This document shows positions 10,101 to 33,990 of a stretch of 64,000 nt of DNA, one piece after another. The notes under the pieces were generated by a model. The model did not search any database. It was not told the origin of the DNA and saw only the letters and a program-made list of their open reading frames with translations. The stretch lies in the NCBI GenBank assembly GCA_049320885.1, contig JBMORA010000035.1, positions 46,369-110,368 on the forward strand. The letters are read 5' to 3'. The position numbers and the translations under genes were made by a program. Numbering within the stretch: the first letter of the stretch is position 1; each line of letters begins with the position of its first letter. Origin of the DNA: Thermodesulfobacteriota bacterium (GTDB lineage: Bacteria; Desulfobacterota; Desulfobacteria; Desulfobacterales; SURF-7).

Positions 10101-10125
10101 CGAGGCAAACGAAACCCGTTTTTTT

Positions 10126-10179
10126 ATCTGTGTCCATCCGAGCAATCTGTGGATAAACCGCTTTTCCCGCCGGCGGCAG
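10126..10179 (-). repeat. Inverted half-copy of the ATCCACAGAT hairpin family
   Basis: Reverse complement resembles 30594-30650 (gcc.ccggcgggaaaagcgg.ttatccacagat...gacacagat). Confidence 0.75.
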
Positions 10180-10634: not shown

Positions 10635-10669
10635 TATCCACAGATGATGCAGATTAACACAGATGAAAA
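10635..10669 (+). repeat. Left arm of the ATCCACAGAT hairpin family
   Basis: tatccacagatgatgcagattaacacagatgaaaa. Confidence 0.7.
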
Positions 10670-10735
10670 CCGTAACAATAAGCTGCGCGAATCTTCGAAA
10701 CCCGCAGATTCAAACCATTTTGTGGAGGTCAGTAA

Positions 10736-13866: not shown

Positions 13867-14820
13867 ATGATCGAAGCCTATATTGAAAAATTCAAAAAGC
13901 TGCGGACTGACAGGAATCGAAAAATCTGGACGGAGCGCACTTCTTACCGCGCGCCCCACAAACCTTTCCTGCTGCTCTCGATCATGGATCTCATCAACCA
14001 GGGAGACATCACCGCCAATTTCATTGAACCGACCTTCGACCTGGTGGAGATGTTCAATACCTACTGGTCGGCCGTCATGCCGCCCGCAGCCTCCACCAGT
14101 ATGGCCTATCCGTTTTATCATATGCGCAGCGAAGGCTTCTGGAAGCTCGTACCGGACATCGACACCCCGGTTTATTCCGTCAGTAAATTGCGTGAGCACT
14201 ACCAGGGTGCCATCATCGACGAGACCCTGTTCCTACTCTTACAGCAGTCCGCCAGCCAGCACCAGCTGCGCACAGCCCTGATCACCACCTATTTCGCCCC
14301 GGACCTGCAGCCATTAGTCTTCGAACAGGGCGTAGTAAGCTACCAGGCCCATGCCTATGGCCAGGAACTGCTGCGGATTGCCGAGTCGGCAGCCGGTTTT
14401 GAAAAGACTGTGCCGCCGGCCCTCCAGGAACCGAAAGTCCGCGACCAGGCCTTCCGCAAGGTGATCGTATCCCTGTACAACCACCGCTGTGCCCTCTGCG
14501 GCATCCGCATGCTCACCCCCGAAGGCCATACCGTGGTGGAAGCCGCCCACATCGTCCCTTGGCATAAAAGCCAGGATGATCGGCCCAGCAATGGGCTTTC
14601 TCTCTGCCGCCTCTGCCACTGGTCTTTTGACGAGGGCCTCATGAGCGTTGGTAAAGAGTACGAAGTCCTGGTTTCCAAACGCGTCACTCTGGAAAACAAT
14701 TTTCCAGGGCATATGTTGACTCTTTCGGACCGACGGATCTTCCGTCCCGATGATCAAAAATATTGGCCGGATCAGGAGAATTTAAATTGGCATCGTCAGA
14801 AATTTTATGAAAGGTTGTAA
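13867..14820 (+). CDS. HNH endonuclease with an SBD-like N-terminus (putative phosphorothioate-dependent type IV restriction enzyme)
   Basis: [10 protein letters not shown] and YPFYHM..EGFW N-terminal motifs; CALCG...EAAHI...[17 protein letters not shown] domain. Confidence 0.75.
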
Positions 14821-14875
14821 AAATCCGGATCAGACGCTATCAATTCACGAGTGTCCAAGAGGGTTTGTGGCCCAT

Positions 14876-17260
14876 ATGGATAAAAAAAAGCTGAGTGAAC
14901 GCGACATCTGCACCAAATTCATCACCCCGGCTCTGGAACGCGCGGGTTGGGATATCAGCACCCAGGTTCGGGAAGAATTTCCCCTTACCAACGGGCGTAT
15001 CATCGTGCGTGGCAAGCTGTATACCCGCGCCAAGCACAAGCGCGCCGATTATGTCCTGTTTTACAAGCCGAATATTCCCATTGCCATTATCGAAGCCAAG
15101 GACAACAACCACACGGTTGGCGATGGCATGCAACAGGCCCTGGGCTATGCTGACATGCTGCAAGTGCCGTTTGTATTCAGCTCCAACGGCGATGGCTTTT
15201 TGTTTCACAACAGAATTGCCGCAGATGGCGTTATCGAGCGTGAGCTCTCACTTAACGAATTTCCCTCTGTGGAAACATTATGGCAACTATGGGGGCAACA
15301 TCGCGGGCTGAACGACCAGCAGAATGCGTTGGTCACGCAGGATTATTATAGCGACGTAAGCGGCAAGAACCCGCGCTATTACCAGTTATTGGCCATTAAC
15401 AAAACCATTGAGGCAATCGCTCAGGGGAAAAATCGTATTCTTCTGGTGATGGCAACCGGCACCGGCAAAACCTTCACCGCCTTTCAAATCATCTGGCGTT
15501 TATGGAAGTCCAGGGCAAAAAAACGAATCCTGTTTCTTGCCGACCGCAACATTTTGATCGACCAGACCATGACCAATGATTTCAAACCATTCGGTTCGGC
15601 CATGACCAAGATCCAGAAGCGGCAGACCAATAAGTCCTACGAGATTTACCTTTCCCTCTATCAGGCTGTTACCGGAAATGAGGAAGAGAAAAACATTTAT
15701 AAGCAGTTCAGCCCCGATTTTTTCGATCTGATCATTATTGATGAATGCCATCGGGGCAGTGCGGCCGCCGATTCGGCCTGGCGTGAAATCCTCGAATATT
15801 TCACCTCCGCCACCCAGATCGGTCTTACCGCCACCCCCAAGGAGACCAAAGAAGTTTCCAATATCGATTACTTTGGCGACCCCATCTATACTTACAGTCT
15901 TCGGCAGGGAATCGACGACGGTTTCCTTGCCCCTTATAAGGTCGTGCGCATCGATTTCGACCGGGATTTGACCGGCTGGCGACCCGACAAGGGCATGATC
16001 GACAAGTACGGCAACGAAATCGAGGACCGCATTTACAACCAAAAGGATTTCGACAAGACCCTGGTCCTTGAACAGCGCACCCAGTTGGTGGCCAAAAAGA
16101 TCACCGAATTCCTCAGGCAGACCAACCGCTTCGACAAAGCCATCGTCTTTTGCGAAAACATCGACCATGCCGAGCGCATGCGCCAGGCCCTGGTCAATGA
16201 AAACGCCGACCTGGTGGCGCAAAACAGCAAATACGTCATGCGCATCACCGGCGACAACGAGGAAGGCAAAGCCGAGCTCGATAACTTCATTTTTCCGGAG
16301 AGTAAATACCCGGTTATTGCCACCACTTCCAAGCTGATGACCACCGGCGTGGATGCTCAGACCTGCAAACTCATCGTGCTCGACCAGCGCATTCAGTCCA
16401 TGACCGAATTCAAGCAGATCATCGGGCGCGGCACCCGCATCAATGAAGACTACGGCAAGTACTATTTCACCATCATTGACTTTAAAAAGGCCACCGAGTT
16501 GTTTGCCGACCCTGATTTCGACGGTGATCCGGTCCAGATCTACGAACCCAAGGGGGATGAATCACCGGTGCCGCCGGATATTCCCGGCGAGGCCGAAAGT
16601 GGCAGCGGCGTCACCTACCCGGAACCAGGAGGCGAGCAGGATTGGACCGGCGTCGCCGAACCCGGCCCAGAAGAGGAGGGCGACGGAACTCGCCGTTACG
16701 TCGTGGCCAATGTCGAGGTCAAGGTTGCCGCCGAGCGCGTCCAGTATTTCGACGCCAACGGTAAACTGATCACCGAATCCCTCAAGGACTACACCCGCAA
16801 GGCCCTGGCTAGGGAATACGCCTCCCTCGACGATTTCCTCCGCCGCTGGACCAGCACCGAAAAGAAGCAGGCCATCATCGACGAACTCTCCGAACAGGGG
16901 GTGTTCTTCGATGCCCTTGCCGATGAGATCGGGCGGCAATCCGGCAAAGCATTCGATCCGTTCGATCTGGTCTGCCATGTCGCTTGGGATATGCCGCCTC
17001 TTACCCGCAAGGAACGGGCGGAACAGGTGAAGAAACGTAACTACTTCACCCAATACGGCGAGCAGGCCCGTCGCGTGCTGGAAGCGCTGCTCGACAAGTA
17101 CGCCGATGAAGGCGTGGCCCCCATCGAAGAGACGCAGATTCTCACCATTGCCCCTTTTACCAAATTCGGCACCCCGCTGGAAATTATCCGCGCCTTTGGG
17201 GGGCTGGATCAGTATCAGCAGGCTGTGCATGAGCTGGAGGATGCGCTTTATGCCGGATAA
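14876..17260 (+). CDS. hsdR: Type I restriction enzyme R subunit (EcoAI/EcoEI-like)
   Basis: ADYVL..IIEAK nuclease motif; [18 protein letters not shown] and QIIGRGTR helicase motifs. Confidence 0.95.
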
Positions 17261-17714
17261 ACAAACCTCACACGAAGGCACGAAAACACGAAGGGATAAA
17301 GAAGGGTTATCCAAGATCGTTGTGGATTGTGCATACCGGATGCATGTTGAGATCGGGCCGGGGTTGCTCGAGTCTGTTTATGAGGCGGTACTGGAGAAAC
17401 TGCTATTGGAGAAAGGTCTCAGGGTAAATCGACAAAAGTCCATACCGATTGAGGTGATGGGTCTTTCCATCCATGAAGGATTCAGGGCTGATCTGATCGT
17501 GGAGGATCTTCTGCTGATTGAGCTTAAATCAGTAGAAAAACTCGCCCCGGTTCATTCCAAACAAGTCCTGACCTACCTTCGGCTTCTCAATCTGCCTCTC
17601 GGACTCCTCCTCAACTTCGGCGCAGCCACGTTCAAAGAAGGCTGCAAGCGCATCGTCAACGGCAAACAGGACTTCGTGTCTTCGTGCCTTCGTGTGAACC
17701 AAAAAGGATACTAA
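17250..17714 (+). CDS. GxxExxY protein (PD-(D/E)XK-like, PDDEXK_3 family)
   Basis: [33 protein letters not shown] and GLLLNFG motifs; start overlaps the hsdR stop. Confidence 0.9.
17268..17697. repeat. 26-bp inverted repeats enclosing the GxxExxY gene body
   Basis: TCACACGAAGGCACGAAAACACGAAG (17268-17293) versus CTTCGTGTCTTCGTGCCTTCGTGTGA (17672-17697), 25/26 complementary. Confidence 0.92.
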
Positions 17715-17716
17715 TC

Positions 17717-19183
17717 ATGTCACTGACCAACCTGATCAAAACCATTCAGGACATCATGCGCAAGGATGTCGGCGTCGATGGCGACGCTCAGCGCATCAGC
17801 CAGATGGTCTGGCTGATTTTCCTGAAGATCTTCGACGACAAGGAGCAGGAGTGGCAGCTCACCGTGCCCGGCTACAAATCGCCGCTGCCCAGCCGTTTCC
17901 GCTGGTCCAGCTGGGCCAAGAACCCCGAGGGGATGACCGGCGAGGAATTGATCGACTTCGTCAACAATGACCTCTTCCCGGCGCTTAAAAAACTGGCCAT
18001 CACAGCCGGCGTGTCGACCCATGGCAAGGTGGTCGGTTCGGTGTTCGAGGACGCCTACAACTATATGAAATCAGGTCATCTCCTGCGCCAGGTGATCAAC
18101 ACCATCGAAGCGGATGTGGACTTCAACAAATCCAGCGACCGGCACCTGTTCAACGACATCTACGAAAAGATTCTTTCTGACCTGCAATCGGCCGGTAACG
18201 CAGGTGAATACTACACCCCCCGCGCCGTCACCCGGTTCATGGTCGACATGCTCGATCCTCGACTCGGGCAAACCATTCTCGACCCGGCCTGCGGCACCGG
18301 CGGCTTTCTGACCTGCGCCATCGAGCACCTGAACAAGCAGGTCAAAACCGCCGAGGACCGCAAGCGCCTGCAGGGGTGTATCCACGGCGTGGAGAAGAAA
18401 CCCCTGCCGCACATGCTGGCCATGACCAACATGATGCTGCACGGCATCGATGTGCCCACCAACGTCCACCACGACAACACCCTGAGCCGACCGCTGAAGG
18501 ATTACGGCCCCCGCGACCGGGTTGACCTGATCATCACCAACCCGCCCTTTGGCGGCATGGAAGAGGATGGAATCGAGAATAACTTCCCGCGCAAGTACCA
18601 GACCCGCGAGACCGCCGACCTCTTCATGGCGCTGATCATGCACCGCTTGAAGCACGATACCGGCAAGGCCGCCGTGGTTCTGCCCGACGGCTTTCTGTTC
18701 GGCGAGGGAACCAAAACCAATCTGAAGCGCGAATTGTTGGAGGAATTCAATCTGCACACCATCGTGCGCCTCCCCAAAGGCGTGTTCAGCCCCTATACCA
18801 GTATCGCCACCAACATCCTCTTTTTCGAAAAAGGCGATCCGACCAAGGAGGTCTGGTTCTTCGAGCACCCGTATCCTGAGGGCTACAAATCCTACTCCCG
18901 CTCCAAGCCCCTGACCATCGCCGAGTTCGATCTCGAAAAAGCCTGGTGGGGCGGAGCCGGGCGCAAGGGCCGCAAGACCACCGAACAGGCCTGGAAGGTT
19001 TCGGCCAAGGAACTGGCTGAACGCAACTACAACCTGGACTGCAAGAACCCGCACCAGGTGGAGGTCAACCACCGCGATCCGGAAGAGTTGATGGCCGAAT
19101 ACCGGCAGATCGTCCACCAGCTCGAAGCGGCGCAGGCAGCCTTGAAAGCCGAGTTGACGGCCTGCCTGGGGGGCAAGTCATGA
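17717..19183 (+). CDS. hsdM: Type I RM N6-adenine methyltransferase
   Basis: GEYYTPR, DPACGTGGFL and TNPPFG motifs. Confidence 0.95.
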   Translation: MSLTNLIKTIQDIMRKDVGVDGDAQRISQMVWLIFLKIFDDKEQEWQLTVPGYKSPLPSRFRWSSWAKNPEGMTGEELIDFVNNDLFPALKKLAITAGVSTHGKVVGSVFEDAYNYMKSGHLLRQVINTIEADVDFNKSSDRHLFNDIYEKILSDLQSAGNAGEYYTPRAVTRFMVDMLDPRLGQTILDPACGTGGFLTCAIEHLNKQVKTAEDRKRLQGCIHGVEKKPLPHMLAMTNMMLHGIDVPTNVHHDNTLSRPLKDYGPRDRVDLIITNPPFGGMEEDGIENNFPRKYQTRETADLFMALIMHRLKHDTGKAAVVLPDGFLFGEGTKTNLKRELLEEFNLHTIVRLPKGVFSPYTSIATNILFFEKGDPTKEVWFFEHPYPEGYKSYSRSKPLTIAEFDLEKAWWGGAGRKGRKTTEQAWKVSAKELAERNYNLDCKNPHQVEVNHRDPEELMAEYRQIVHQLEAAQAALKAELTACLGGKS

Positions 19184-20340: not shown

Positions 20341-20350
20341 CGGGATGGTC

Positions 20351-20527
20351 TCACACGAAGGCACGAAGACACGAAGTTTTGAAAACAGTCGTTATACCCG
20401 CGAAGGCGGGTACCCAGATTCGTGGCAACGATTTATCCAACGGCTTGCTGCACTATTTCCAATTATTCAGACCGGGAGGGGGGTATGACCAGTTCGTCCT
20501 CCTTCGTGCCTTCGTGTCTTCGTGTGA
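20351..20527. repeat. Gene-less copy of the CACGAAG inverted-repeat element, with a nested REP-like hairpin
   Basis: Arms at 20351-20376 and 20502-20527; internal TACCCGC-GAAG-GCGGGTA at about 20395-20412. Confidence 0.9.
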
Positions 20528-22527
20528 GCGATCTGCTGGAACAGCATTTCGACACCGCCTTTGCCGCGCCTGCCGGTATCGCCAAACTGCGCGAGTTGAT
20601 CTTGACCCTCGCCATGCAGGGCAAGCTGGTGGAACAGGACCCGAACGACCCACCCGCCAGCGAGTTGCTGAAGGAGATCGAAGCCGAAAAACAGCAGCTT
20701 GTGAAAGCGGGCAAGATTAAAAAGCCCAAGCCGCTGCCGCCCATTAAGCCGGAGGAAGTGCCCTACGAACTGCCGGAGGGATGGGAGTGGGCGAGGCTCG
20801 GTGAAATAACTGAATACAACGGTCGAAAAAATATCTCGGGCGATGAGATAGCCCCCGATACATGGTTGCTTGATCTCGAAGACATTGAAAAGGGAACTTC
20901 TCGTATTCTGTTCCGAGCAAAGTTTTCAGAGCGCCAATCAAAATCTACGAAATCAACCTTTCAGAAAGGTGATGTGCTTTATGGCAAACTTCGTCCCTAT
21001 CTCGACAAGGTTGTGGTAGCAGATGCTGATGGAGTTTGCACGACTGAGATTGTGCCCATCGTTCCGTTTAACGGAATACATTCTGAATTTCTCAGGTGGT
21101 TACTAAAGCGCCCTGCATTTATAACCCATGTTAACTCTCTCATGTATGGCGTCAAAATGCCCAGGCTTGGCACAGATGATGCTTTAACGAGTATTCACCC
21201 GCTTCCCCCCCTCCCCGAACAACACCGCATCGTCGCCCGCATCAACCAGTTGATGACCCGTTGTGATGAGTTGGAAAAGCTGCACAAACAGCGGGAGGAG
21301 AAGCGGCTGGCCGTCCACGCCGCCGCCATCAAGCAACTGCTCGACCCGCCGGACCTGTCTGCCGGCCAGGCAGGCGGCTCGGCCTGGGACTTTATCCAAC
21401 AGCACTTCGACGACCTCTACACCGTCAAGGAAAACGTCGCCGAACTGCGCAAGGCCATCCTCCAACTCGCCGTAATGGGCCGCCTCGTTCCCCCTGCCTG
21501 CCGGCAGGCAGGCAAGACCCCAACGACCCTCCCACCACCAGAACCTGGATCATGGTGGGTGTACGTTATTGAGTGCGAAAATGGATCATTCTATAAAGGT
21601 TTTACAGAAGATCTTCCGCGTCGCTGGCGGCAACATCTATCAGGTACTGCGAGCGAATGGACAAAAAAGCATCCACCCAAACAGGTTTACTACTGGGAAA
21701 AATGTTTTTCAAAAGAAGCAGCCATTAAGCGGGAAGACTATTTGAAATCAGGCTTTGGTCGAGAATGGTTCAAGCGCGAGGTGGTTGATAATCAAAAAGC
21801 ATGGCAGACCGCCAGCGAACTGCTCAAAGAGATCGAAGCCGAAAAACAGCGACTGATGAAGGCAGGTAAAATCAAGAAGCCCAAGCCCGTACCGCCCATC
21901 AAGCCGGAGGAAGTGCCCTACCAACTGCCGCAGGGCTGGGAGTGGGTGCGATTTGGAAAAGTTGCGAGCAACCGACTAGGAAAAATGCTCGATAAATCTA
22001 AGAATCGAGGTAACCCAAAACCATATTTGAGAAATACCAATGTTCAATGGCATCAGTTTGTTCTTGATGATGTCAAAGAGATGAAATTCGAAGATGAAGA
22101 GCTTGATGAATTTCGTGTACTTCCCGGTGACCTTCTAATATGCGAAGGTGGTGAACCCGGTCGCTGTGCAATATGGCGCGATTCAGAGGTAGAAATCTAT
22201 TTCCAGAAAGCCATACATAGAGCGAGGCCGTTTTCGTGCGTTACTTCTGAGTATCTGCAAGTTTGCCTTACAAACGATGGGGGTAACGGTCAGTTGGAAA
22301 AGTATTTCACTGGGGCAACAATCAAGCATTTCCCTGGTGACAAGCTTAATGGGTATGTCATTCCTCTACCACCTCTTCCCGAACAACACCGCATCGTCGC
22401 CCGCATCGATCAGTTGATGGCCCTGTGCGACACACTCGACCAGCAGATCGACGCTGCCACCGGCAAAAAGACCGAACTGCTGGACGCCGTGATGGCCCGC
22501 CTGTCGGCAGACACGGCCCAGGTATAA
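20485..22527 (+). CDS. hsdS: Type I RM specificity subunit with an in-frame GIY-YIG nuclease domain between the two TRDs
   Basis: Duplicated ASELLKEIEAEK...PEEVPY.LP.GWEW and PLPPLPEQHRIVARI conserved regions; two lower-GC TRDs; insert WWVYVIEC..SFYKGFT...REDYLKSGFGREW. Confidence 0.92.
   Translation: MTSSSSFVPSCLRVSDLLEQHFDTAFAAPAGIAKLRELILTLAMQGKLVEQDPNDPPASELLKEIEAEKQQLVKAGKIKKPKPLPPIKPEEVPYELPEGWEWARLGEITEYNGRKNISGDEIAPDTWLLDLEDIEKGTSRILFRAKFSERQSKSTKSTFQKGDVLYGKLRPYLDKVVVADADGVCTTEIVPIVPFNGIHSEFLRWLLKRPAFITHVNSLMYGVKMPRLGTDDALTSIHPLPPLPEQHRIVARINQLMTRCDELEKLHKQREEKRLAVHAAAIKQLLDPPDLSAGQAGGSAWDFIQQHFDDLYTVKENVAELRKAILQLAVMGRLVPPACRQAGKTPTTLPPPEPGSWWVYVIECENGSFYKGFTEDLPRRWRQHLSGTASEWTKKHPPKQVYYWEKCFSKEAAIKREDYLKSGFGREWFKREVVDNQKAWQTASELLKEIEAEKQRLMKAGKIKKPKPVPPIKPEEVPYQLPQGWEWVRFGKVASNRLGKMLDKSKNRGNPKPYLRNTNVQWHQFVLDDVKEMKFEDEELDEFRVLPGDLLICEGGEPGRCAIWRDSEVEIYFQKAIHRARPFSCVTSEYLQVCLTNDGGNGQLEKYFTGATIKHFPGDKLNGYVIPLPPLPEQHRIVARIDQLMALCDTLDQQIDAATGKKTELLDAVMARLSADTAQV
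21354..21374. repeat. 21-nt intragenic palindrome CCTGTCTGCCGGCCAGGCAGG
   Basis: In frame in hsdS (LSAGQAG); removal gives P-D-G-S-A-W. Confidence 0.8.
21493..21512. repeat. 20-nt perfect palindrome CCTGCCTGCCGGCAGGCAGG
   Basis: Removal restores RLVP-QDPNDPP, matching KLVE-QDPNDPP in the first HsdS repeat. Confidence 0.9.
21534..21810 (+). other. 277-nt insert encoding a GIY-YIG (YhbQ/SLX1-like) nuclease domain
   Basis: Sits between GACCCTCCC and GCCAGCGAA, whose equivalents are contiguous in the first HsdS repeat; VYVI...FYKG, R..QH and E..LK residues. Confidence 0.85.
22496..22516. repeat. 21-nt degenerate palindrome CCCGCCTGTCGGCAGACACGG
   Basis: In frame at the hsdS C-terminus; removal gives AVMAQV*. 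Confidence 0.7.
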
Positions 22528-22536
22528 GGAGATGCC

Positions 22537-22653
22537 ATGCGCCTGACATCACTTTATATCGGCCAGTACAAGAACCTTCGGGATTTTTCTCTGAGGTTCG
22601 ACCTGCCGGCCGGGCAGGCGGGCGGCAGCAACTTTATCGATGTCTTTGTCGGC
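22537..22653 (+). pseudogene. N-terminal remnant of an AAA/ABC-type ATPase following hsdS
   Basis: MRLTSLYIGQYKNLRDF...IDVFVG, truncated at the expected Walker A and fused to a NERD-gene fragment; AGGAG RBS. Confidence 0.7.
22602..22622. repeat. 21-nt palindrome CCTGCCGGCCGGGCAGGCGGG
   Basis: In frame in the ATPase remnant (LPAGQAG); removal gives F-D-G-S. Confidence 0.78.
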
Positions 22654-22897
22654 AATACCGTCGGCCTGATGTGGTTTAATGAGAGCGGACACTGAGTCAA
22701 GCGTGGTTTTTTAATCGGCTTAGAAACATAGACAAAACAGAAGGTTTTTGTTATCTGGCACGGCAACTAGCCGGAAAGGTTATTTGCGAGAATGGGCTAT
22801 AGGTGCTCGTCGGAGCAAATAAACTTTCCGGCGGGTCCCAGGATTCGGCTTGGATAGCGGATATGTTTCGGGAGCTATTACGCAGACGAGGTGTTCA

Positions 22898-23200
22898 ATG
22901 GGTGAAAAGAAGCAGCGAAAAGATTACACGGATGAATTTAAACTGGATGCCGTCAAGCTAGTTATCGAACAAGGGTACTCCACCCCTGAGGTTGGCCGGC
23001 GGCTGGGGATCAATCATACCAACGTCTCAAGATGGGTTCGGGAATATCATGCAAAGATAGGTGTCCCTTCCAAAAGTTCAGGTGCTGTCCAGGAACTGGA
23101 GGAGGAGGTAAAACGCCTCAGAAAAGAAAACAAACGCCTTTTGATGGAGCGAGAAATCTTAAAAAAGGCGGCGGCCTTCTTTGCGAACGAATCGAACTGA
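22898..23200 (+). CDS. IS3 transposase OrfA
   Basis: YTDEFKLDAV HTH; EREILKKAAAFF. Confidence 0.9.
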   Translation: MGEKKQRKDYTDEFKLDAVKLVIEQGYSTPEVGRRLGINHTNVSRWVREYHAKIGVPSKSSGAVQELEEEVKRLRKENKRLLMEREILKKAAAFFANESN

Positions 23201-24068
23201 GGTTCGATTTTATCCGGCAGCAAATGAAGGCCTATCCCGTAACCGTCTTATGTTCGGTGATGCGGGTTAGCCGGGGTGGGTTCTATGGCTATCTGAAACG
23301 ATTCAATGCTGGGAAGAATCGTCCAGAAGAGACCGAATTGGGGAAGCGAATCAAAGAAATATTCAACGATCACAAAAACTGCTACGGATCCCGACGGATC
23401 GCAAGGCAATTAAGGGATGAAGGCCAGCCGGTGGGCCGATATAAAGTGCGACGGATCATGCGCCAGTTGTGGGGCTGAAGGCAAAAACTCCCAAGCGGTT
23501 CAAGCTGACGACCGACAGCCGACATTCGTTCCCGGTGGCGCCCAATACCCTGAATCGGAAATTCACGGTTGATGCTCCGAACAAGGTCTGGACGGCGGAT
23601 ATCACCTATGTATGGACCTTTGAAGGTTGGTTATACCTGGCGGTTGTCATGGACCTGTATTCCCGCCGGATTGTCGGGTGGGCCATGAGTGAAAGAATGC
23701 AGAAGCAGCTTGTGCTGGATGCCCTGGCCATGGCGTATTGGCAGCGGAAGCCCTCAAAGGGTCTTTTGCATCATTCGGATCGCGGAAGTCAGTATGCCTG
23801 CCATGAATACAGGAAGCGGCTTAAAGGCTATGGCATGGAGGCCAGCATGAGCAGAAAGGGAAACTGCTGGGATAATTCACCAATGGAACGCTTTTTCCGC
23901 TCCTTGAAATCAGAACGGTTGACCGCTTGCCGTTTTGTGTCACGGAATGAAGCAAAAATGGAAATACTGGACTATATTACATTCTATAACAGCATTCGGC
24001 TTCATTCGACATTGGGGTACGTATCTCCGATGGCTTATGAGAAAAAACAGTACTTAAAGGTGGCTTGA
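23197..24068 (+). pseudogene. IS3 transposase OrfB, broken by an extra frameshift at about 23470
   Basis: YGSRRI...RIMRQL|GLKAK split across two frames. Confidence 0.82.
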
Positions 24069-24101
24069 TTTTGTGTCCGTTTTTCCTTGACCATTACAGC
24101 C

Positions 24102-24253
24102 TGGTTGTTTTTGGAGTGAAGGACTCGGGGCTTGAGCAGATCGTCGCGGCTGATCCGCATCAGTTCCGGCTCAATATGGGGGGCGTGACCGAGAACCGGA
24201 AAAATTCATACCAGCAGGCCCGGGAATATTTCTACCAGTTGATGAACCGCATC
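24102..24253 (+). pseudogene. Degenerate internal fragment of the NERD gene (the IS3 target)
   Basis: Near-identical to 25299-25451; its left part ggcaataccgtcggcc precedes the IS. Confidence 0.8.
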
Positions 24254-24392
24254 CACAATCACAAACCGAATCAGAGTCAGACTTACCCGCAATGCTCGGG
24301 TCCGTGGAATTATGGAGGCCGTGACGAATGCATGATACGACCAAGCCATTGATGGTTAGCGAGGATAGTGTTTCATATGGGGGGGAAAAGCC

Positions 24393-24980
24393 ATGATGAC
24401 CCTTCGGCTTTTCTCCGGGAAATTTGAATCCGTGCCGGCCGCCACATCCTGGTACTTGGCAGACCTTGGCGAGGCGCGTGGCAAACAGGAATTGTTTACC
24501 CGTCAATCGCCGCAGCGTCTCAAGGCTTTGCGGGAGCACGCCCTCATTGAAAGCGCCGTATCATCCAACCGGATCGAGGGCGTGGAGGTCGAGCAATCCC
24601 GAATCGCCACCATCGTCTTCGGCCAGCCGCTTCTGCGGGACCGTGATGAGGAGGAAGTCCGGGGATACCGGCAGGCCCTGACCTGGATTCATGAGCAAGG
24701 GGCGAAAATCCCGATATCGGAAGAGACCGTTTTACAGCTCCATCATATGACACGCGGGGAAATCTGGGATGCCGGAAAATACAAAAATAAAGACGGCGAC
24801 ATTATCGAAAAGTTTCCGGATGGCAGGTCGCGGGTCCGCTTCAAAACCGTTCCGGCGAAAGACACGCCGAGTTTCATGAAGGATCTGGTCGAGTTGTACG
24901 ACGATGCCATCGAGGATCGCAAAGTCCCGCCGCTTGTCCTTTTAGCCGCCCTCAACCTCGATTGGGGCGGCAAGTGTTGA
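24393..24980 (+). pseudogene. Fic-family protein, N-terminal part, truncated before the catalytic motif
   Basis: SSNRIEG, EVRGYRQAL and LQLH motifs; ends AALNLD with no HPFxDGNGR. Confidence 0.75.
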
Positions 24981-25127
24981 AGATGCAATCCGAAAAAGGG
25001 AAGTCGTGATCCCTGTGGCGAAATAATGCATCAGAATGGATGGCAGACGGGCCGGGATAACAGGTCAACTTTATAGAAAATGGAACTAAAACAGGGACTG
25101 ATTTGTATGTGCTATTGAGGTGCGCGT

Positions 25128-25616
25128 ATGGCCCAAATGATTCCGCCTGATGTTGAGACCTTCACAACCGATGGCGAAAGGCAGTTCTACCGATTTTTGG
25201 AAGCGGTCGCCAAGCCGGATTCGAATTTTATCGCCTGGTATACGCCGAACATTGACGGGAAGGAGCCGGATTTCGTTCTTTTCGGCAATACTGTCGGCCT
25301 GGTTGTTTTTGAAGTGAAGGACTGGGGGCTTGAGCAGATCGTCGCGGCTGATAAGCATCAGTTCCGGCTCATTATGGGGGGCGTGACCGAGAACCGAAAA
25401 AATCCTTACCGGCAGGCCCGGGAATATTTTTACCAGCTGATGAACCGCATCGAGCAGGACGGGCGGCTGGTATCGCAGGAGCCGGGACATCATGGCAAGC
25501 TCCGGATACCGATCACCTGCGGCGTCATCTTTCCCAACATCAATAAATACGAGTATTCCCAAAAAGGCTTGGACATAAAAATTGCCCATTATTCACTATT
25601 CGAATCAGGAGAATAG
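25128..25616 (+). pseudogene. Truncated duplicate of the NERD-helicase N-terminus
   Basis: Near-identical to 30809-31256, then diverges and stops. Confidence 0.85.
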
Positions 25617-27104: not shown

Positions 27105-27492
27105 AGAGACTACCGAGCTAAAGCGGTTTATCCACAGATTACGCGATTTCTTGCGATTTCTTGTCGGACCAAGTAGAACCATTGACTATCAATTGGTTAG
27201 GATAAAAATCAGACCATTTTGGGGTCTTAGAACGATGTTTTTGGGGTCGAAAAGGGCGGTTTAAGGAACGCGAGGGCTGAAACTGTGTTTGGCGAAAATG
27301 TAACGATCAGCTAAAACGCCTGAAATAGGACGGGGATGCCTTGCTGTTCGACTTGAAATATAGCGTTGGACCGCTGAAAAATACGGAATCAGGTTCCATG
27401 GATTATCAGGCGCTCAAAAAACTGATACAGGAAGTCAAAACCGACCGGCTGGAAATTGCCAGTCCCGGCGGTCTTCGGTTCAGGTCTACCGA

Positions 27493-27962
27493 AGACTTAC
27501 CCGCAATGCTCGGGTCCGTGGAATTATGGAGGCCGTGACGAATGCACGATACGAACAAGCCATTGATGGTTAGCGAGGATAGTGTTTCATATGGGGGGGG
27601 AAAGCCATGATGACCCTTCGGCTTTTCTCCGGGAAATTTGAATCCGTGCCGGCCGCCACATCCTGGTACTTGGCAGACCTTGGCGAGGCGCGTGGCAAAC
27701 AGGAATTGTTTACCCGTCAATCGCCGAAGCGTCTCAAGGCTTTGCGGGAGCACGCCCTCATTGAAAGCGCCGTATCATCCAACCGGATCGAGGGCGTGGA
27801 GGTCGAGCAATCCCGAATCGCCACCATCGTCTTCGGCCAGCCGCTTCTGCGGGACCGTGATGAGGAGGAAGTCCGGGGATACCGGCAGGCCCTGACCTGG
27901 ATTCATGAGCAAGGGGCGAAAATCCCGATATCGGAAGAGACCGTTTTACAGCTCCATCATAT
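27493..27962 (+). repeat. 470-bp direct duplicate of 24279-24748 (Fic upstream region and 5' half)
   Basis: Near-identical by direct comparison. Confidence 0.92.
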
Positions 27963-28424: not shown

Positions 28425-28569
28425 TCACGCGAAGACGCGAAGAGCGCGAAGGGAAAAGCGGTTTAACCACGGATTACACGGATTGCACGGATGAAAAACC
28501 AAAAGATGGTTTTTTGCCTCCGGCAGGAAAAAACTTGCTTCTCTTCGCGCTCATCGCGGCTTCGCGTGA
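28425..28569. repeat. CGCGAAG variant of the inverted-repeat element, with a nested CCACGGAT arm and a GCCTCCGGC mini-hairpin
   Basis: tcacgcgaagacgcgaagagcgcgaag ... cttcgcgctcatcgcggcttcgcgtga. Confidence 0.85.
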
Positions 28570-28752: not shown

Positions 28753-29535
28753 ATGCCATCCCGAACCGAAAAAAAACTGGAACAAAGCCTGCCCGAAGGG
28801 CAAGTGGTGAACCGCGCCTGGCTCAAGGCGCGTGGATTCAACCGGCCCAGGGTGGATTATGCCTTGCGGGCCGGCAAACTGGAAGCCATAGCCCACGGGG
28901 TATACCGAAGGCCAGGACCGCCACTCAAGTGGGAGCATGTGGTCTATTCGCTGAACGAGATGGGCTGCCCGGTGCATGTGGGTGGCCGCAGTGCTTTGGA
29001 ATTGCAGGGGATGGCCCATTACCTGCCGCTGGGTGGCACGCAGCGCATCGACCTTTACGGCACCGCCAAGGTGCCCGGCTGGGCATGCGATTTGTCGGCC
29101 CCGTACACATTCGTGGTCCATTCCCGGCGTTTTTTCAAGAAGCTCCCGGAGGCGGCGCTGTACAACCGGCCGTTCGGTTCCTGGGACTGGCCCATTCCGT
29201 ACAGCACTCCGGAGCTGGCCCTGCTGGAGCTTTTAGCCGGTGTCCGGGAGGCGACGGATTTTTCCATGGCCGATAAATTTTTTGAAAGTGCTGCCAATTT
29301 GCGGCCGGAATTGCTCGATGACTTGCTGGGTTCCTGCACCCAGGTGAAAGCCAAACGCCTTTTCCTGTGGTTCAGCGATCGTCACGGCCATGCCTGGCGT
29401 CAACGGCTCGAAACCAGAGATATTGAACTGGGCCGGGGCAAGCGCATGCTGGTCAAGAGTGGGGCGTATGACGCAGTCTATCAGATAACCGTTCCCAAGG
29501 ACATGGCCGGTGGAAGTGAACAGTCCCTATATTGA
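28753..29535 (+). CDS. abiEi: Type IV TA / AbiE antitoxin (AbiEi_3-like)
   Basis: HVGGRSALELQG.AHYL, STPELALLE and QVKAKRLFL motifs; overlaps the downstream nucleotidyltransferase. Confidence 0.85.
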   Translation: MPSRTEKKLEQSLPEGQVVNRAWLKARGFNRPRVDYALRAGKLEAIAHGVYRRPGPPLKWEHVVYSLNEMGCPVHVGGRSALELQGMAHYLPLGGTQRIDLYGTAKVPGWACDLSAPYTFVVHSRRFFKKLPEAALYNRPFGSWDWPIPYSTPELALLELLAGVREATDFSMADKFFESAANLRPELLDDLLGSCTQVKAKRLFLWFSDRHGHAWRQRLETRDIELGRGKRMLVKSGAYDAVYQITVPKDMAGGSEQSLY

Positions 29536-30427
29536 ACAGGTCCGTCTGTTGATCAAGCTGATGCCCAGTGTGGCCAGGCAACCCTGTTTTGCCTTAAAAG
29601 GCGGGACGGCCATCAATCTGTTTCTGAGAGACACGCCACGGCTATCGGTGGATATCGACCTGGCTTATCTACCAATAGCGGATCGCGAGAGCAGCCTGGC
29701 GGGAATCGATGCGGCACTCGGAGCAATAGCGGAAGATATAGAAAGATATATACCGCGTACCCAGGTCAAGTCGTCTACCCTGAAAGGCACAGGCATGCGC
29801 TTCAAGCTATTGGTCATGCAAGCGGAAGCAAGTGTCAAGATAGAAGTGACGCCAGTGTTGCGGGGCACTGTCTATCCGGTTGAAAGCCGCCGGCTAGCGG
29901 AAAGAACGGAAAAGGCTTTTGGTTTTGCCGAAATGCAACTGCTCAGTTTTGAGGATATCTACGCCGGGAAAATCTGTGCGGCTCTGGACAGGCAACATCC
30001 GCGGGATCTGTATGATGTGCATTGGCTGTTGCAGAATGAGGGAATTGGTGAGCGATTGAAGAACGCCTTCCTGGTGTACTTGATGGGCCATAATCGGCCT
30101 ATGGCAGAGCTGTTGGCGCCCCAGCCACAAGATATTACATCACTTTACCGGGCTGAATTTACGGGATTGGCTTACGAACCGCTGGAACTTGAAAGATTGC
30201 AGGAGACCCTGCCGAATTTGGTTGCCCTCCTTCATAGGGTTTTGAGCGATGATGACAAGCAGTTCCTGCTGGCGCTCAAACAGGGAACGCAGGATTGGCA
30301 AAAATTCCCATTGCCGGAAGTGGAACGGCTGCCGGCCATCCAATGGAAGATCCAGAATTTAGCGCGCATGAACCCCAGCAAACGTCGTCAGGCAATAACG
30401 AAGCTGGGAAATATCTTGTTCGGGTAG
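29510..30427 (+). CDS. abiEii: AbiEii/AbiGii nucleotidyltransferase toxin
   Basis: LKGGTAINLF, RLSVDIDL and KICAALDRQHPRDLYD motifs. Confidence 0.9.
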   Translation: MEVNSPYIEQVRLLIKLMPSVARQPCFALKGGTAINLFLRDTPRLSVDIDLAYLPIADRESSLAGIDAALGAIAEDIERYIPRTQVKSSTLKGTGMRFKLLVMQAEASVKIEVTPVLRGTVYPVESRRLAERTEKAFGFAEMQLLSFEDIYAGKICAALDRQHPRDLYDVHWLLQNEGIGERLKNAFLVYLMGHNRPMAELLAPQPQDITSLYRAEFTGLAYEPLELERLQETLPNLVALLHRVLSDDDKQFLLALKQGTQDWQKFPLPEVERLPAIQWKIQNLARMNPSKRRQAITKLGNILFG

Positions 30428-30619
30428 TATCATTGCGTCATTGTGTTCGGTTGGTCGGTTGTCGGTTGGGGACGGACGAATGTAACACCATAACTTCATA
30501 GAAAATGAATGGGAAAATATATCCGTTTTCAGTGCTTAGAACCACCATTGCGGGGTTGAAAAGGGTGGTTTAAGAAAGAGTGGATCAATATAGTTTTGCC
30601 TCCGGCGGGAAAAGCGGGT

Positions 30620-30742
30620 TATCCACAGATGACACAGATTGACACAGATTAAAAACAAAAAAGAAGGGTTCTTTTGCCTCCGGCAGGGAAAAGGATATCA
30701 TTTTTTTCAGTTATCTGTGTAAATCGGTGTAATCGGTGGATA
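30620..30742. repeat. 123-bp intergenic hairpin element (ATCCACAGAT family), copy 1
   Basis: tatccacagatgacacagattgacacagat ... atctgtgtaaatcggtgtaatcggtggata, with central ttttgcctccggcagggaaaa. Confidence 0.88.
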
Positions 30743-30808
30743 TAAAAAAACATGCCTCCTAAAATGTAAAGAAGCAAATGAAGGTACTGCAACGAATAAG
30801 GCGCGCAT

Positions 30809-32680
30809 ATGGCACAAATGATCCCACCCGATGTTGAAACCTTCACGACCGAAGGCGAAAAGCAGTTCTACCGGTTCCTGGAAAATGTCGGCAAGCCGGA
30901 TTCGAATTTTATCGCCTGGTATACGCCGAACATCGATGGGAAGGAGCCGGATTTCGTGCTTTTCGGCAGTACCGTCGGCCTGCTTGTTTTTGAAGTGAAG
31001 GACTGGGGGCTTGAGCAGATCGTCGCGGCTGATAAGCATCAGTTCCGGCTCATTATGGGGGGCGTGACCGAGAACCGGAAAAATCCTTACCGGCAGGCCC
31101 GGGAATATTTCTACCAGCTGATGAACCGCATCGAGCAGGACGGGCGGCTTGTCTCGCAGGAGCCGGGACATCACGGCAAACCCCGCATACCGATCACCTG
31201 CGGCGTCATCTTTCCCAACATCAATAAATACGAGTATTCCCAAAAAGGCCTGGACAACATCATCGGCGCGACCAAGATCCTCTTCTGGGACGATCTGCAC
31301 ACCGCCTCGGATATTTGCACGGATCCGTCCGGCAAATGTTTCCAGGATGCCCTGGAAAACATGTTCGAGCATCGATTCCGTTTTTCCGTCACGGTCAAGG
31401 AACTGGATCACCTGAAACAGCTGATTTTTCCCCTGGTGAAAATCGAATTGCCGGAACGGAAGGGGCAGGACACGTTTCAGCACCATCTGAACCGGCTCAA
31501 ATCGATTGATCACCATCAAGAAGCCCTGGCCCGCAGGTTCGACGGCGGCCACCGGATCATCAGCGGACCTTCGGGCAGCGGGAAAACCCTCATTCTGGTC
31601 CATAAGGCCGCGTTCCTGAAACAATACAATCCCGCGATACATCGCCTATTGTTCGTCTGCTACAACATCACGCTTGTGAATTATATCCGGCGGCTGCTGG
31701 CGGCCAAGGGCGTGCCCCTGGGGAAAAACGGCGTTGATGTTTGTCACATCTTCGAGCTTTGTTCCCTAATCGTCGGTGAATCCGTTCCGTATGAAAACGA
31801 GGATGCCGATTATTACGATCTGGTTGTCCAGGAAGCGCTGGCCAGGGTGGCGACTTGCGGAATCCGCTATGACGCCATCCTGGTGGACGAAGGCCAGGAC
31901 ATGTCCGGCGATATGTACCGGGTCATTACGGCTCTTCTCAATCCGCAGACCAATCACCTGACCATCGTGCATGATGAAAACCAGAACATCTATCGAAAAA
32001 GCCATACGTGGAAAGATGTCGGTGTCCATGCCCGCGGGCGTGTTCACCGGATTTCCTATATTTACCGGAACACCATGGAAATAACGAATTTCGCCGCGCG
32101 GTTTTTGGACGCCTCGCCGGTGGACGGCCAGGGGGGCAACCGCGGGCAACTGGAATTGTTTCCGGATTTTTTTGATTTTCATGGACCCGAGCCCGAGCTG
32201 ATCCCATGCGGCGGGCTGGAACCGCTGCTGAATGTTATCGCCGGCAAGATCGACACATTGAGCCGTCACAACGGCCTGCCGTTCTCGGAGATCGCCGTGC
32301 TGTATTCCATGAAAACTCCCGGACGCCTCAATGGTGTCAACCTGCCCCTGGCGATCCGGGAACGCCTCGAAGGCGCCGGCATCTTGTGCACCTGGACGAC
32401 CGAGAATTACCAGGCCAAACGATCCTATGATATCACGACCGACAGCGTCAGCATCAGCACCATTCACAGCGCCAAGGGATTGGATTATGCCTGTGTCTTT
32501 CTTGTCGGGCTGGATTTTATCGAAACAGAGCGATGGTCCGAGGAGCAGATCCAAAAACTGACCTATGTGGGCATCACCCGGGCGCGCTACCAATTATTCA
32601 TTCCCTTTATCGATGAATGCGAATTGATCCGGAACCTTTTGAAAGCGAAAAAAGATGGAGGTCAATCAAGATATTCTTAA
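30809..32680 (+). CDS. NERD nuclease plus UvrD-like SF1 helicase
   Basis: EPDFV...FEVKDW, GPSGSGKT, DEGQD, YRNT, STIHSAKGLD and YVGITRAR motifs. Confidence 0.88.
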   Translation: MAQMIPPDVETFTTEGEKQFYRFLENVGKPDSNFIAWYTPNIDGKEPDFVLFGSTVGLLVFEVKDWGLEQIVAADKHQFRLIMGGVTENRKNPYRQAREYFYQLMNRIEQDGRLVSQEPGHHGKPRIPITCGVIFPNINKYEYSQKGLDNIIGATKILFWDDLHTASDICTDPSGKCFQDALENMFEHRFRFSVTVKELDHLKQLIFPLVKIELPERKGQDTFQHHLNRLKSIDHHQEALARRFDGGHRIISGPSGSGKTLILVHKAAFLKQYNPAIHRLLFVCYNITLVNYIRRLLAAKGVPLGKNGVDVCHIFELCSLIVGESVPYENEDADYYDLVVQEALARVATCGIRYDAILVDEGQDMSGDMYRVITALLNPQTNHLTIVHDENQNIYRKSHTWKDVGVHARGRVHRISYIYRNTMEITNFAARFLDASPVDGQGGNRGQLELFPDFFDFHGPEPELIPCGGLEPLLNVIAGKIDTLSRHNGLPFSEIAVLYSMKTPGRLNGVNLPLAIRERLEGAGILCTWTTENYQAKRSYDITTDSVSISTIHSAKGLDYACVFLVGLDFIETERWSEEQIQKLTYVGITRARYQLFIPFIDECELIRNLLKAKKDGGQSRYS

Positions 32681-32715
32681 GAAACGGAGTGCGGTTACCG
32701 GTGGCCAGGACGGTT

Positions 32716-32838
32716 TATCCACAGATTACACAGATGGACACAGATGAAAAACGAAAAAAGTTGCATTATTCTGCCTCCGGCAGGAAAAGAATATCATTTT
32801 TTTCAGTTATCTGTGTAAATCGGCGTAATCGGCGGATA
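32716..32838. repeat. 123-bp hairpin element, copy 2
   Basis: Same arms and central ctgcctccggcagg. Confidence 0.88.
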
Positions 32839-32992
32839 GAAAAAAGTATGCCTTATAAAATTATCTGTGACCGTATCTGACACACCAATCTGATATTGAA
32901 TGACGGTATTCGGCATTGGGGCGGTACTGGGCTGAACCGAGATACCAGGCCGATTTTCCCACCCATGATGATCGAAACCGAAAGGGAGGTAA

Positions 32993-33931
32993 ATGTCAGA
33001 TTATATTTTCAAGCATGTCACGGACAAAATCCTTGCGCAACTTGAAAAAGGGAACGTCGTTTGGAAAAAACCATGGACCAGCAACGGGCTGCCGAGGAAC
33101 CTCATTTCCAAACGCCCTTACAGCGGTATCAACTGGCTGCTGTTGGCAATGGCGGGGTTTGCATCACCTTTTTGGGCCACAAAAGAAGCGGTAGGTAAAT
33201 TGGGAGGGAGGGTTCGTCCTGGTGAGTTGCCTGAGTTTGTCTTTTTCTGGAAGATTCAAAATTTGGAACGCCCCGAGGGGGAGGAAGGAGACCAGAGCCA
33301 CCAGTCGCGTATTAGCATTTTTTACAAGGCTTACCAACTCTATAACGTGGAGCAGTGCGAAGGCATCGAGAAAAGGGTTCCCCCCTTTGTGCACCATGAT
33401 TTCGACCCGATCGACAAATGCGAAAAGATTGTGAAAGATATGCCAGCCTGCCCGAAAATCTCCTATGGGGTTCCGGATCCTTACTACACCTCATTGATGG
33501 ACGAGGTGAAAATGCCCTCTCGGAAACTTTTCAGTGATACGGGGGAATTTTACTCGGCACTCTTTCACGAAATCGTGCACAGCACCGGCCACGAGCGCCG
33601 CCTCGGCCGCCACGGGCGGATGCGCGAGAAGTTTGACAGCCATGAGCATAGGTACTCCCACGAGGAACTGGTGGCTGAGATCGGTTCCGGATTTTTGTGC
33701 GCCCATGCGGGAATCGAAAACCACGTGTTAGAGAATTCCGGCGCCTATATCCAACATTGGATAAAACGTTTTGAAAATAGGCAGCGGATGTTTTTTTTCG
33801 CTGCGGCGCAGGCGCAAAGTGCGGTGAATTACATTCTTGGTCTGGGGAAAACAGGTTATCCACAGATTACACAGATGGACACAGATGAAAAACAAGAAGG
33901 CCAGCATATTTTGCCCCCGGCAGGGAAATAA
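32993..33931 (+). CDS. ardC: ArdC-family antirestriction protein (ssDNA-binding plus zincin domains)
   Basis: WKKPW, RPYSGINWLLL, FHEIVHSTGH..RL and YSHEELVAEIGS motifs; GGAGGT RBS. Confidence 0.88.
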   Translation: MSDYIFKHVTDKILAQLEKGNVVWKKPWTSNGLPRNLISKRPYSGINWLLLAMAGFASPFWATKEAVGKLGGRVRPGELPEFVFFWKIQNLERPEGEEGDQSHQSRISIFYKAYQLYNVEQCEGIEKRVPPFVHHDFDPIDKCEKIVKDMPACPKISYGVPDPYYTSLMDEVKMPSRKLFSDTGEFYSALFHEIVHSTGHERRLGRHGRMREKFDSHEHRYSHEELVAEIGSGFLCAHAGIENHVLENSGAYIQHWIKRFENRQRMFFFAAAQAQSAVNYILGLGKTGYPQITQMDTDEKQEGQHILPPAGK

Positions 33932-33980
33932 TTGTTTTATTTTTTTAATTATCTGCGTGAATCGGCGTAATCGGCGGATA
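33857..33980. repeat. 124-bp hairpin element, copy 3, overlapping the ardC 3' end
   Basis: Same arms; translated as YPQITQMDTDEK...PPAGK*. Confidence 0.88.
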
Positions 33981-33990
33981 GAAAAAAAGC

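Follow-up and report, generated by a model that had tools for sequence, protein, structure and literature searches.

Small GIY-YIG nucleases that act at a cognate DNA hairpin are known from the Ssn family. According to the main text of PMC11893778, SsnA cuts single-stranded DNA (ssDNA) next to its hairpin, and mutation of Y6, Y17 and E64 abolishes cutting. SsnA is described there as a free-standing protein of 94 amino acids (aa) whose repeats rarely lie in genes (2%), and its layout was likened to a mobile element by Chenal et al. (2025; PMC11893778). For type I restriction-modification loci, the portion of PMC9881135 available to us mentions only a separate GIY-YIG gene. Here we describe a 64,000-nucleotide (nt) stretch of contig JBMORA010000035.1 from a Thermodesulfobacteriota bacterium (the window), in which hsdS, encoding the specificity subunit of a type I system, is interrupted by a 20-nt palindrome and by a GIY-YIG domain. 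We consider it probable that the palindrome and the domain together form a single selfish cassette, which is translated as a passenger domain and spreads between HsdS repeats. The literature searched contained no account of this hairpin or of fusions between HsdS and GIY-YIG, although the supplements of PMC11893778, which lay outside that search, may list this GIY-YIG group.

The gene shows the features of a type I specificity subunit, namely two target-recognition domains, conserved repeats, and adjacent hsdR and hsdM genes; hsdR, a PDDEXK_3 gene, hsdM and yhcG lie upstream in the locus. Its parts are as follows.

20422..22527, plus strand: hsdS open reading frame (ORF), in a type IB-like gene order, with the cassette in the second conserved repeat
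20626..20667, plus strand: first conserved repeat, empty, reading LVE-QDPNDPP-ASEL, an internal control
21493..21512, no strand assigned: perfect 20-nt palindrome CCTGCCTGCCGGCAGGCAGG, between LVP and Q
21513..21533, plus strand: 21-nt linker CAAGACCCCAACGACCCTCCC, whose host-derived QDPNDPP codons are translated in another frame as KTPTTLP
21534..21810, plus strand: 277-nt GIY-YIG insert (core 21544-21804), with neither start nor stop codon of its own
21928..22452, plus strand: second target-recognition domain, in frame (Pfam Methylase_S, residues 503-677)
14807..17260, plus strand: hsdR, with an EcoEI_R_C domain, of the same type I system
17684..19183, plus strand: hsdM, of the same type I system

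Inspection of the ORF showed a frame open over 701 codons despite both inserts, giving a product of 701 aa from a GTG or of 680 aa from the likely start, the ATG at 20485. The palindrome, with an ssDNA folding energy of -8.0 kcal/mol, sits at LVP|Q with no target duplication, and host sequence restarts at GCCAGC (21811) after the GIY-YIG insert. In silico removal of the palindrome alone gave a 376-aa product ending in QDPNDPPTTRTWIMVGVRY and a stop codon, removal of both inserts gave 602 aa containing QDPNDPPASELL, and empty hsdS relatives (L198, L023 and L018) show LVPQDPNDPPAS at the insert site. The initial annotation had described the palindrome, the linker, the insert, the open frame and the deletion products exactly, and the deletion translations bear out its statement that the frame depends on both inserts. 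A short and decayed duplication appears to surround the GIY-YIG segment in the window (21528-21536 against 21805-21813, 5/9 alike), whereas the copies are identical in L082 (8/8, GAACCCGC), and the protein data of P0254 are compatible with an 8-9-nt duplication around the nuclease segment. The segment is thus probably flanked by an 8-9-nt duplication whose left copy would probably be the last linker codons; with such a duplication, the 277-nt insert may be shifted by a few bases in either direction, and its edge at 21534 is not fixed.

Pfam recognised Methylase_S in two stretches of the product and GIY-YIG at residues 378-445 (E 3e-14; 53.3 bits against a cut-off of 22.6). The AlphaFold2 model of the fusion folded with a mean predicted local distance difference test (pLDDT) score of 80.5 and placed the inserts in a loop, the corresponding region of repeat 1 also being coil. 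This prediction supports the nuclease-bearing HsdS proposed in the initial annotation, in that the gene likely yields a folded HsdS-GIY-YIG fusion. Recognition of an asymmetric two-part site is probably retained by such a subunit. A 955-nt Logan contig of run X1 spans 21453-22407 and crosses both junctions with 0 differences, which ruled out an assembly error there; since run X1 may be the source sample, this match checks the assembly rather than an independent isolate.

The layout is not private to the window. Of 1230 candidates in a protein search with residues 345-500, 1030 reached E <= 0.001, and the 120 listed carried GIY-YIG in 120/120 cases and Methylase_S in 119/120. A PACRQAG-type peptide lay after G.LV. 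and before the GIY motif in 119/120, and the remaining protein had a doubled PACRQAG-type variant; the query itself contained PACRQAG, which skews the list in favour of the offset layout (palindrome, linker, GIY-YIG). HsdS-GIY-YIG fusions are therefore widespread, and the earlier idea of two private, mutually compensating insertions is not supported in view of 119 listed homologues of the same design. Carriers in the list include Hoylesella timonensis, Rubritalea tangerina and a Planctomycetales bacterium, and the cassette occupies the N-terminal, middle or C-terminal repeat across HsdS types. The offset order was also found at further sites, AEGR|DP, CPD|GVE and FTD|AWE in HsdS and FMAW|KSADG in HsdR. 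A second homologue search returned filled alleles only. Among 17 other genomes of the source family no copy of the cassette was detected at E 1e-8, one weak match (L065) being an SsnA-like gene. In viral contigs the palindrome occurred in 40 stretches, and hsdS was recognised in none of them; a search of these contigs with the GIY-domain alignment gave no match, and the junction pattern gave one match, outside hsdS. Plasmid searches found only distant free-standing GIY-YIG genes and distant HsdS proteins. Two HsdS proteins (P0121 and L104) carry two GIY-YIG inserts, and another (P0131) has a duplicated, internally deleted arm pair.

To avoid this layout bias, we searched with the GIY domain alone. 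Most of the best 150 representatives were in-frame inserts whose left boundary is LPA and whose right boundary is RQAG, these being the two palindrome halves. Scanning metagenomes for the GIY motif yielded 354 relatives; the 80 most similar to the window domain were kept, and removal of 25 with identical junctions and addition of 12 genome loci left 67 loci. At 65 of the 67, the reading frame of the GIY domain continued into host sequence at either end, the exceptions being L071, with an internal stop, and L073, with its own start. Arm-type elements, bounded by CCTGCCTG...CAGGCAGG, numbered 53 and were mostly 282 nt long; 49/53 were a multiple of 3, four as parsed were not, and 50/53 lay at one codon phase. 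The ends of the window palindrome are the same as the ends of these elements. A whole hairpin upstream of GIY-YIG, as in the window, was seen at 9/67 loci, while 15/67 unique DNA loci carried an arm-type element at LVPQ..D|E in the HsdS loop, in frame and with no upstream palindrome. The fusion in this sister lineage is therefore in frame without the palindrome, an outcome that the initial annotation had named as pointing to a different junction history. The HsdS QDPND loop appears from these sequences to accept a whole domain and to have been entered independently by two element lineages.

The hosts of the domain bear on whether it serves the cell. In the host scan, which covered 38 proteins hand-chosen as likely non-HsdS or controls, the domain lay within the restriction-modification and defence proteins HsdR, HsdM, DrmD-like helicases and a DUF1156 protein, and also within Ogt, QueC, MsrB, a Nudix protein, trigger factor, TfoX and a sugar dehydratase. 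One DUF1156 protein (P0174) combines a GIY-YIG insert with a DUF559 domain. A domesticated, nuclease-armed HsdS, in which GIY-YIG is delivered by the type I complex and adds cutting of invading DNA, would agree with the conserved active site, with the strong concentration of GIY-YIG in hsdS and other defence genes, and with the predicted fold, in which the two-domain architecture is undisturbed. Related domains inside housekeeping hosts such as Ogt and QueC argue against such a role, as does the frequency of empty hsdS alleles, which are common; host benefit would also leave the unchanged hairpin DNA and the extra hairpins nearby unexplained. We regard domestication as unlikely, and of the nuclease-armed specificity subunit first proposed, the fusion is retained as likely and the host adaptation is the less likely part.

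Selection on the two parts was apparent. Tyr, Tyr, Gly, Arg, His and Glu of the active site were invariant in 23 aligned sequences, and all six were kept in 133/138 proteins; modelled alone, the domain reached a pLDDT of 95. Among the three distinct offset cassettes at LVP that could be compared at the DNA level (the window, L080 and L082), nonsynonymous differences (pN, 0.24-0.31) were well below synonymous ones (pS, 0.79-1.0), and the palindromes were identical at 20/20 positions. The nuclease is under purifying selection and the hairpin DNA is unchanged. These data bear on the possibility that the cassette is an inert relic, an old insertion hitchhiking on ordinary shuffling of target-recognition domains. 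The conserved HsdS repeats are recombination points according to PMC3874165 and could explain the spread, but a relic would not be expected to keep pN far below pS, to retain the active site in nearly all proteins, or to have a hairpin identical across distant hosts with further hairpins seeded locally; we consider it very unlikely.

In the domain tree (78 rows of 170 dereplicated, 73 columns) a branch (90/68; 92% of bootstrap trees) set the 24 dereplicated window-type domains apart from the rest, and these lie in three HsdS repeat positions despite forming one clade. The sampled arm-type rows formed a separate group (99/97), with P0148 alone outside, and this separation indicates that two lineages entered the HsdS loop. 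Free-standing GIY-YIG genes beside tRNA copies were the outer group; the tRNA label of these partial copies was assigned by eye. In L012, L020 and L060 the order is that of the window, a clean 20-nt palindrome insertion being followed by a short target piece and then by a free-standing nuclease gene. The same palindrome stands in a partial tRNA copy upstream of the GIY-YIG gene in these three loci and in L006 and L009, and a palindrome-free tRNA copy lies downstream of the gene in L012, L020 and L060. If the root lies among the free-standing tRNA-linked genes, the offset layout would be the older one. It is less likely that the window cassette is a decayed arm-type element joined by a later palindrome, because the arm type falls in another clade (99/97) and the offset forms are basal with a tRNA-linked root.

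Two further hairpins of the same family occur nearby.

21354..21374, plus strand: second family hairpin, 21 nt, in frame as LSAGQAG, absent from an empty relative
22602..22622, plus strand: third hairpin, more degenerate, 21 nt, FDLPAGQAGGSNF, inside the next small ORF

At the position of the second hairpin, L023 reads KQLLDTPNGSAWDF and is hairpin-free. A perfect 20-nt palindrome occurs once in the window against 0.06 expected (100 shuffles), but 108 such palindromes occur in the genome, so that the palindrome is significant by its family and not by its length. A strict scan of the 5.6-Mb genome for family hairpins found two only, both in the hsdS of the window. In the compared loci, 20 distant family hairpins were found in 17/67 GIY loci against 0 in 12 HsdS-only loci, the background in shuffles being 0.037 per 100 kb. 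Rfam gave 0 matches within window positions 13000-35000. Stand-alone hairpins inside ORFs were mostly 21, 27 or 30 nt long, and in two proteins the palindrome stood at LVP|Q without GIY-YIG and with one extra base (PACRQAGKTPT|DEPAS in P0003; LVP-TCLPAGR-QIVAEG in P0011), each of these proteins carrying the full cassette in its other repeat. Such one-base compensators and hairpin lengths are as expected from translation through the hairpin and selection for an open frame.

The linker was found to follow the host. In P0010 the linker KLQAK decodes to QIASE in the host frame, to be compared with QIAAEG in that protein's own empty repeat, and among the K....NP linkers (98 in 8 forms), 97/98 are compatible with QDPNDEP in the host frame; only 27 of about 20,000 random 5-mers fit full QDPND by chance. 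Dual decoding would account for this if hairpin and nuclease were skipped in RNA or by the ribosome and the linker were read as QDPNDPP, yielding native HsdS beside the fusion. This predicts the peptide RLVPQDPNDPPAS, distinct from KLVEQDPND of repeat 1, whereas plain read-through gives the PACRQAGKTPTTLP junction. In the window all 7/7 linker codons are host codons, matching the PP variant of its family, and changes among the 98 linkers fall into four types at the second base, which are silent in the host frame, and one at the first base, although changes silent in the fusion are invisible in protein data. Many linkers, however, have drifted from the host code and lack QDPND in the host frame (KTSDS, RISDT, KTPEE and KSLEN; the DNA of L080 gives QDPERV), and in P0008 and P0114 the linker is read in frame. 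The predominance of 21-, 27- and 30-nt hairpins in ORFs and the one-base compensation of 20-nt copies at LVP|Q point to translation through the hairpin, and sequence skipped by bypass or as an intron need not keep frame, which is nevertheless kept in 65/67 loci. Dual decoding is highly improbable in our judgment, and it is equally improbable that some lineages, including that of the window, carry a dual-coded cassette, in which recoding or splicing would have to bridge two gaps, something without parallel among known bacterial cases. The host-frame meaning of the linker is explained more simply by recombinational overwriting, the signal being lost in other lineages; occasional overwriting in recombination, or repeated insertion, fits host-following and drifted linkers alike, and universal skipping does not.

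The initial annotation had also suggested that gain and loss of the hairpin toggles between a full fusion and a half-HsdS recognising a symmetric site. A 20-nt deletion would indeed leave a natural one-domain half, half-HsdS switching by repeat tracts is documented in PMC7383803, and truncated EcoDXXI and EcoR124I HsdS proteins are described in PMC3874165. Neither the 67 loci nor 75 shorter proteins nor the contigs of runs X1-X4 contained a frameshifted allele lacking only the palindrome; these data sets are blind to rare alleles, contigs in particular dropping rare variants. Among the shorter proteins, P0308 ends QDPKDEP...WMIYVLE and is ambiguous, possibly a broken palindrome-less fusion known as protein sequence only. 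A 244-nt X1 contig with the empty site LVPQNPNDPPAS was considered as a precise-excision product and rejected; it has 13 differences over 140 nt, is absent from the source genome and represents another hsdS. No length variants of hsdS at the junction were seen among the contigs and compared loci, and no long simple repeat (the longest being C5 and (GGCA)3) or flanking direct repeat is present for reversible loss. The cassette is N-terminal in many relatives, where loss of the hairpin would leave no target-recognition domain, and the one-base-compensated palindromes at LVP|Q without GIY-YIG (P0003 and P0011) likewise oppose a switch. We therefore hold a hairpin switch to be extremely improbable.

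The selfish-cassette reading combines the observed anatomy, spread, frame rule and conservation of the cassette and the clustering of hairpins near the nuclease gene with movement proposed from the Ssn nucleases. The GIY-YIG domain would be made as a passenger inside HsdS, would bind its cognate hairpin in ssDNA and, like SsnA, would nick a short distance away; the nick would promote recombinational copying of the cassette into empty HsdS repeats, of which the first repeat of the window hsdS (20626..20667) is a possible homing target, and would seed hairpins. In places the linker between hairpin and nuclease would be overwritten with new host sequence. Palindromic loops in heteroduplex DNA resist mismatch repair, so that the inserts would survive while the linker was corrected. 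A 20-nt hairpin would shift the frame, and survivors would need a compensating base or a nuclease segment of 3n+1 nt; the sum 20 + 277 = 297 would then reflect a selection filter on a mobile element and not a switch.

Several points weigh against this reading. Both the nuclease activity and the movement of the cassette are argued by analogy, the window domain shares only 29% identity with the SsnA-like protein of L016, and the published degenerate SRM pattern has no match in the window. Purifying selection fits host benefit equally well. The clade of window-type domains has moderate support (90/68 on 73 columns), and the HsdS-only control loci are few (12), from other taxa and not taxon-matched. 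The choice of the best 80 of 354 relatives favours intact copies, and protein searches are blind to frameshifted alleles. The offset cassette is also rare in species-representative genomes, the source genome being the only carrier among 14 GIY loci, and a junction pattern search of 152 genomes of one family gave 0 matches.

Other repeats and genes of the window were noted alongside. Copies of a second inverted-repeat family (CACGAAGGCACGAAGACACGAAG and its complement) lie on either side of the PDDEXK_3 gene (17267-17294 and 17672-17697) and, at 20350-20376 and 20501-20528, of a gene-less 125-nt spacer overlapping the hsdS start (FVPSCLRV); an arm of this family lies in frame inside hsdS of L198 and L014 (FVPSCET), and the family is possibly a parallel nuclease-repeat element. 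A hairpin, ATACCCGCGAAGGCGGGTACCC, at 20390-20420 is similar to the GTCATTCCCGCG...GCGGGAATCC repeats that lie next to the SsnA-like genes of L016 and L065 and does not match the published SRM pattern. The short ORF MRLTSLYIGQYKNL... (22537-22694), which contains an in-frame hairpin, is interrupted by an element at about 22660-24100 with two overlapping transposase frames, which we take to be of the IS3 type. Gene-fragment duplications of 155-300 nt, including a NERD-domain gene, occur at 24099-25451, 27493-27792 and 30799-31132, and an AbiEi/AbiEii type IV toxin-antitoxin pair (28753-30427) belongs to the same defence island. A third repeat family, TATCCACAGATTACACAGAT and its complement, has many copies in both orientations.

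10120-10178, 10635-10678, 27116-27150, 28451-28485, 30607-30765, 32703-32861 and 33844-34003, both orientations in the family: copies of the TATCCACAGATTACACAGAT repeat

Compared with described systems, the cassette would be a very small mobile element, a start-less nuclease of about 90 residues riding in host proteins with a 20-30-nt hairpin nearby. Homing endonuclease genes and inteins are selfish nucleases in conserved gene loops that spread by gene conversion, but no intron or intein splicing features were seen here and the domain appears to stay in the mature protein. Rickettsia palindromic elements are palindromes carried in frame in coding sequences and translated, much longer than the window hairpin, and to our knowledge they have no nuclease partner; if the GIY-YIG enzyme moves or seeds its hairpin, a mover would be named for a class of in-gene palindromes. 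Phase-variable hsdS genes (NgoAV and others) share a frame-changing feature between target-recognition domains that could give full or half HsdS, although in the account of PMC7383803 they use long slippery tracts that vary between strains, whereas the window has at most C5 and three GGCA units with no frame variant seen. REP/RAYT REPtrons and TIRtrons resemble the cassette in their short palindromes, some in genes, in an enzyme gene that has these repeats on its flanks, and in their autonomous and non-autonomous forms (Di Nocera et al. 2013, PMC3733652). Their enzyme is an HUH tyrosine transposase and not GIY-YIG, the window palindrome has no GTAG or CGTC tag, and neither 'CCTGCC' nor 'GIY' appears in the available text of PMC3733652. 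The offset layout with its host-following linker may serve as a footprint for deducing the insertion mechanism, and annotated HsdS-nuclease fusions may represent passengers rather than new defence enzymes. The Ssn family (SsnA, cd10448; NTS/SRM hairpins) differs in that the window domain is internal to an HsdS of 680-701 aa, without start or stop, and not free-standing, and in its hairpin, which is unrelated in sequence and unmatched by SRM; at 29% identity to the SsnA-like L016, the window domain has UPF0213 proteins and Slx1 as its nearest solved structures, and neither 'fusion' nor 'in-frame' occurs in the main text of PMC11893778. In both, nevertheless, a small GIY-YIG domain is paired with a cognate hairpin in DNA, and Y7, Y17 and E64 of the window domain match Y6, Y17 and E64 of SsnA. 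If our reading is true, the Ssn idea would extend to a second GIY-YIG group and provide a new enzyme-hairpin pair for ssDNA tools.

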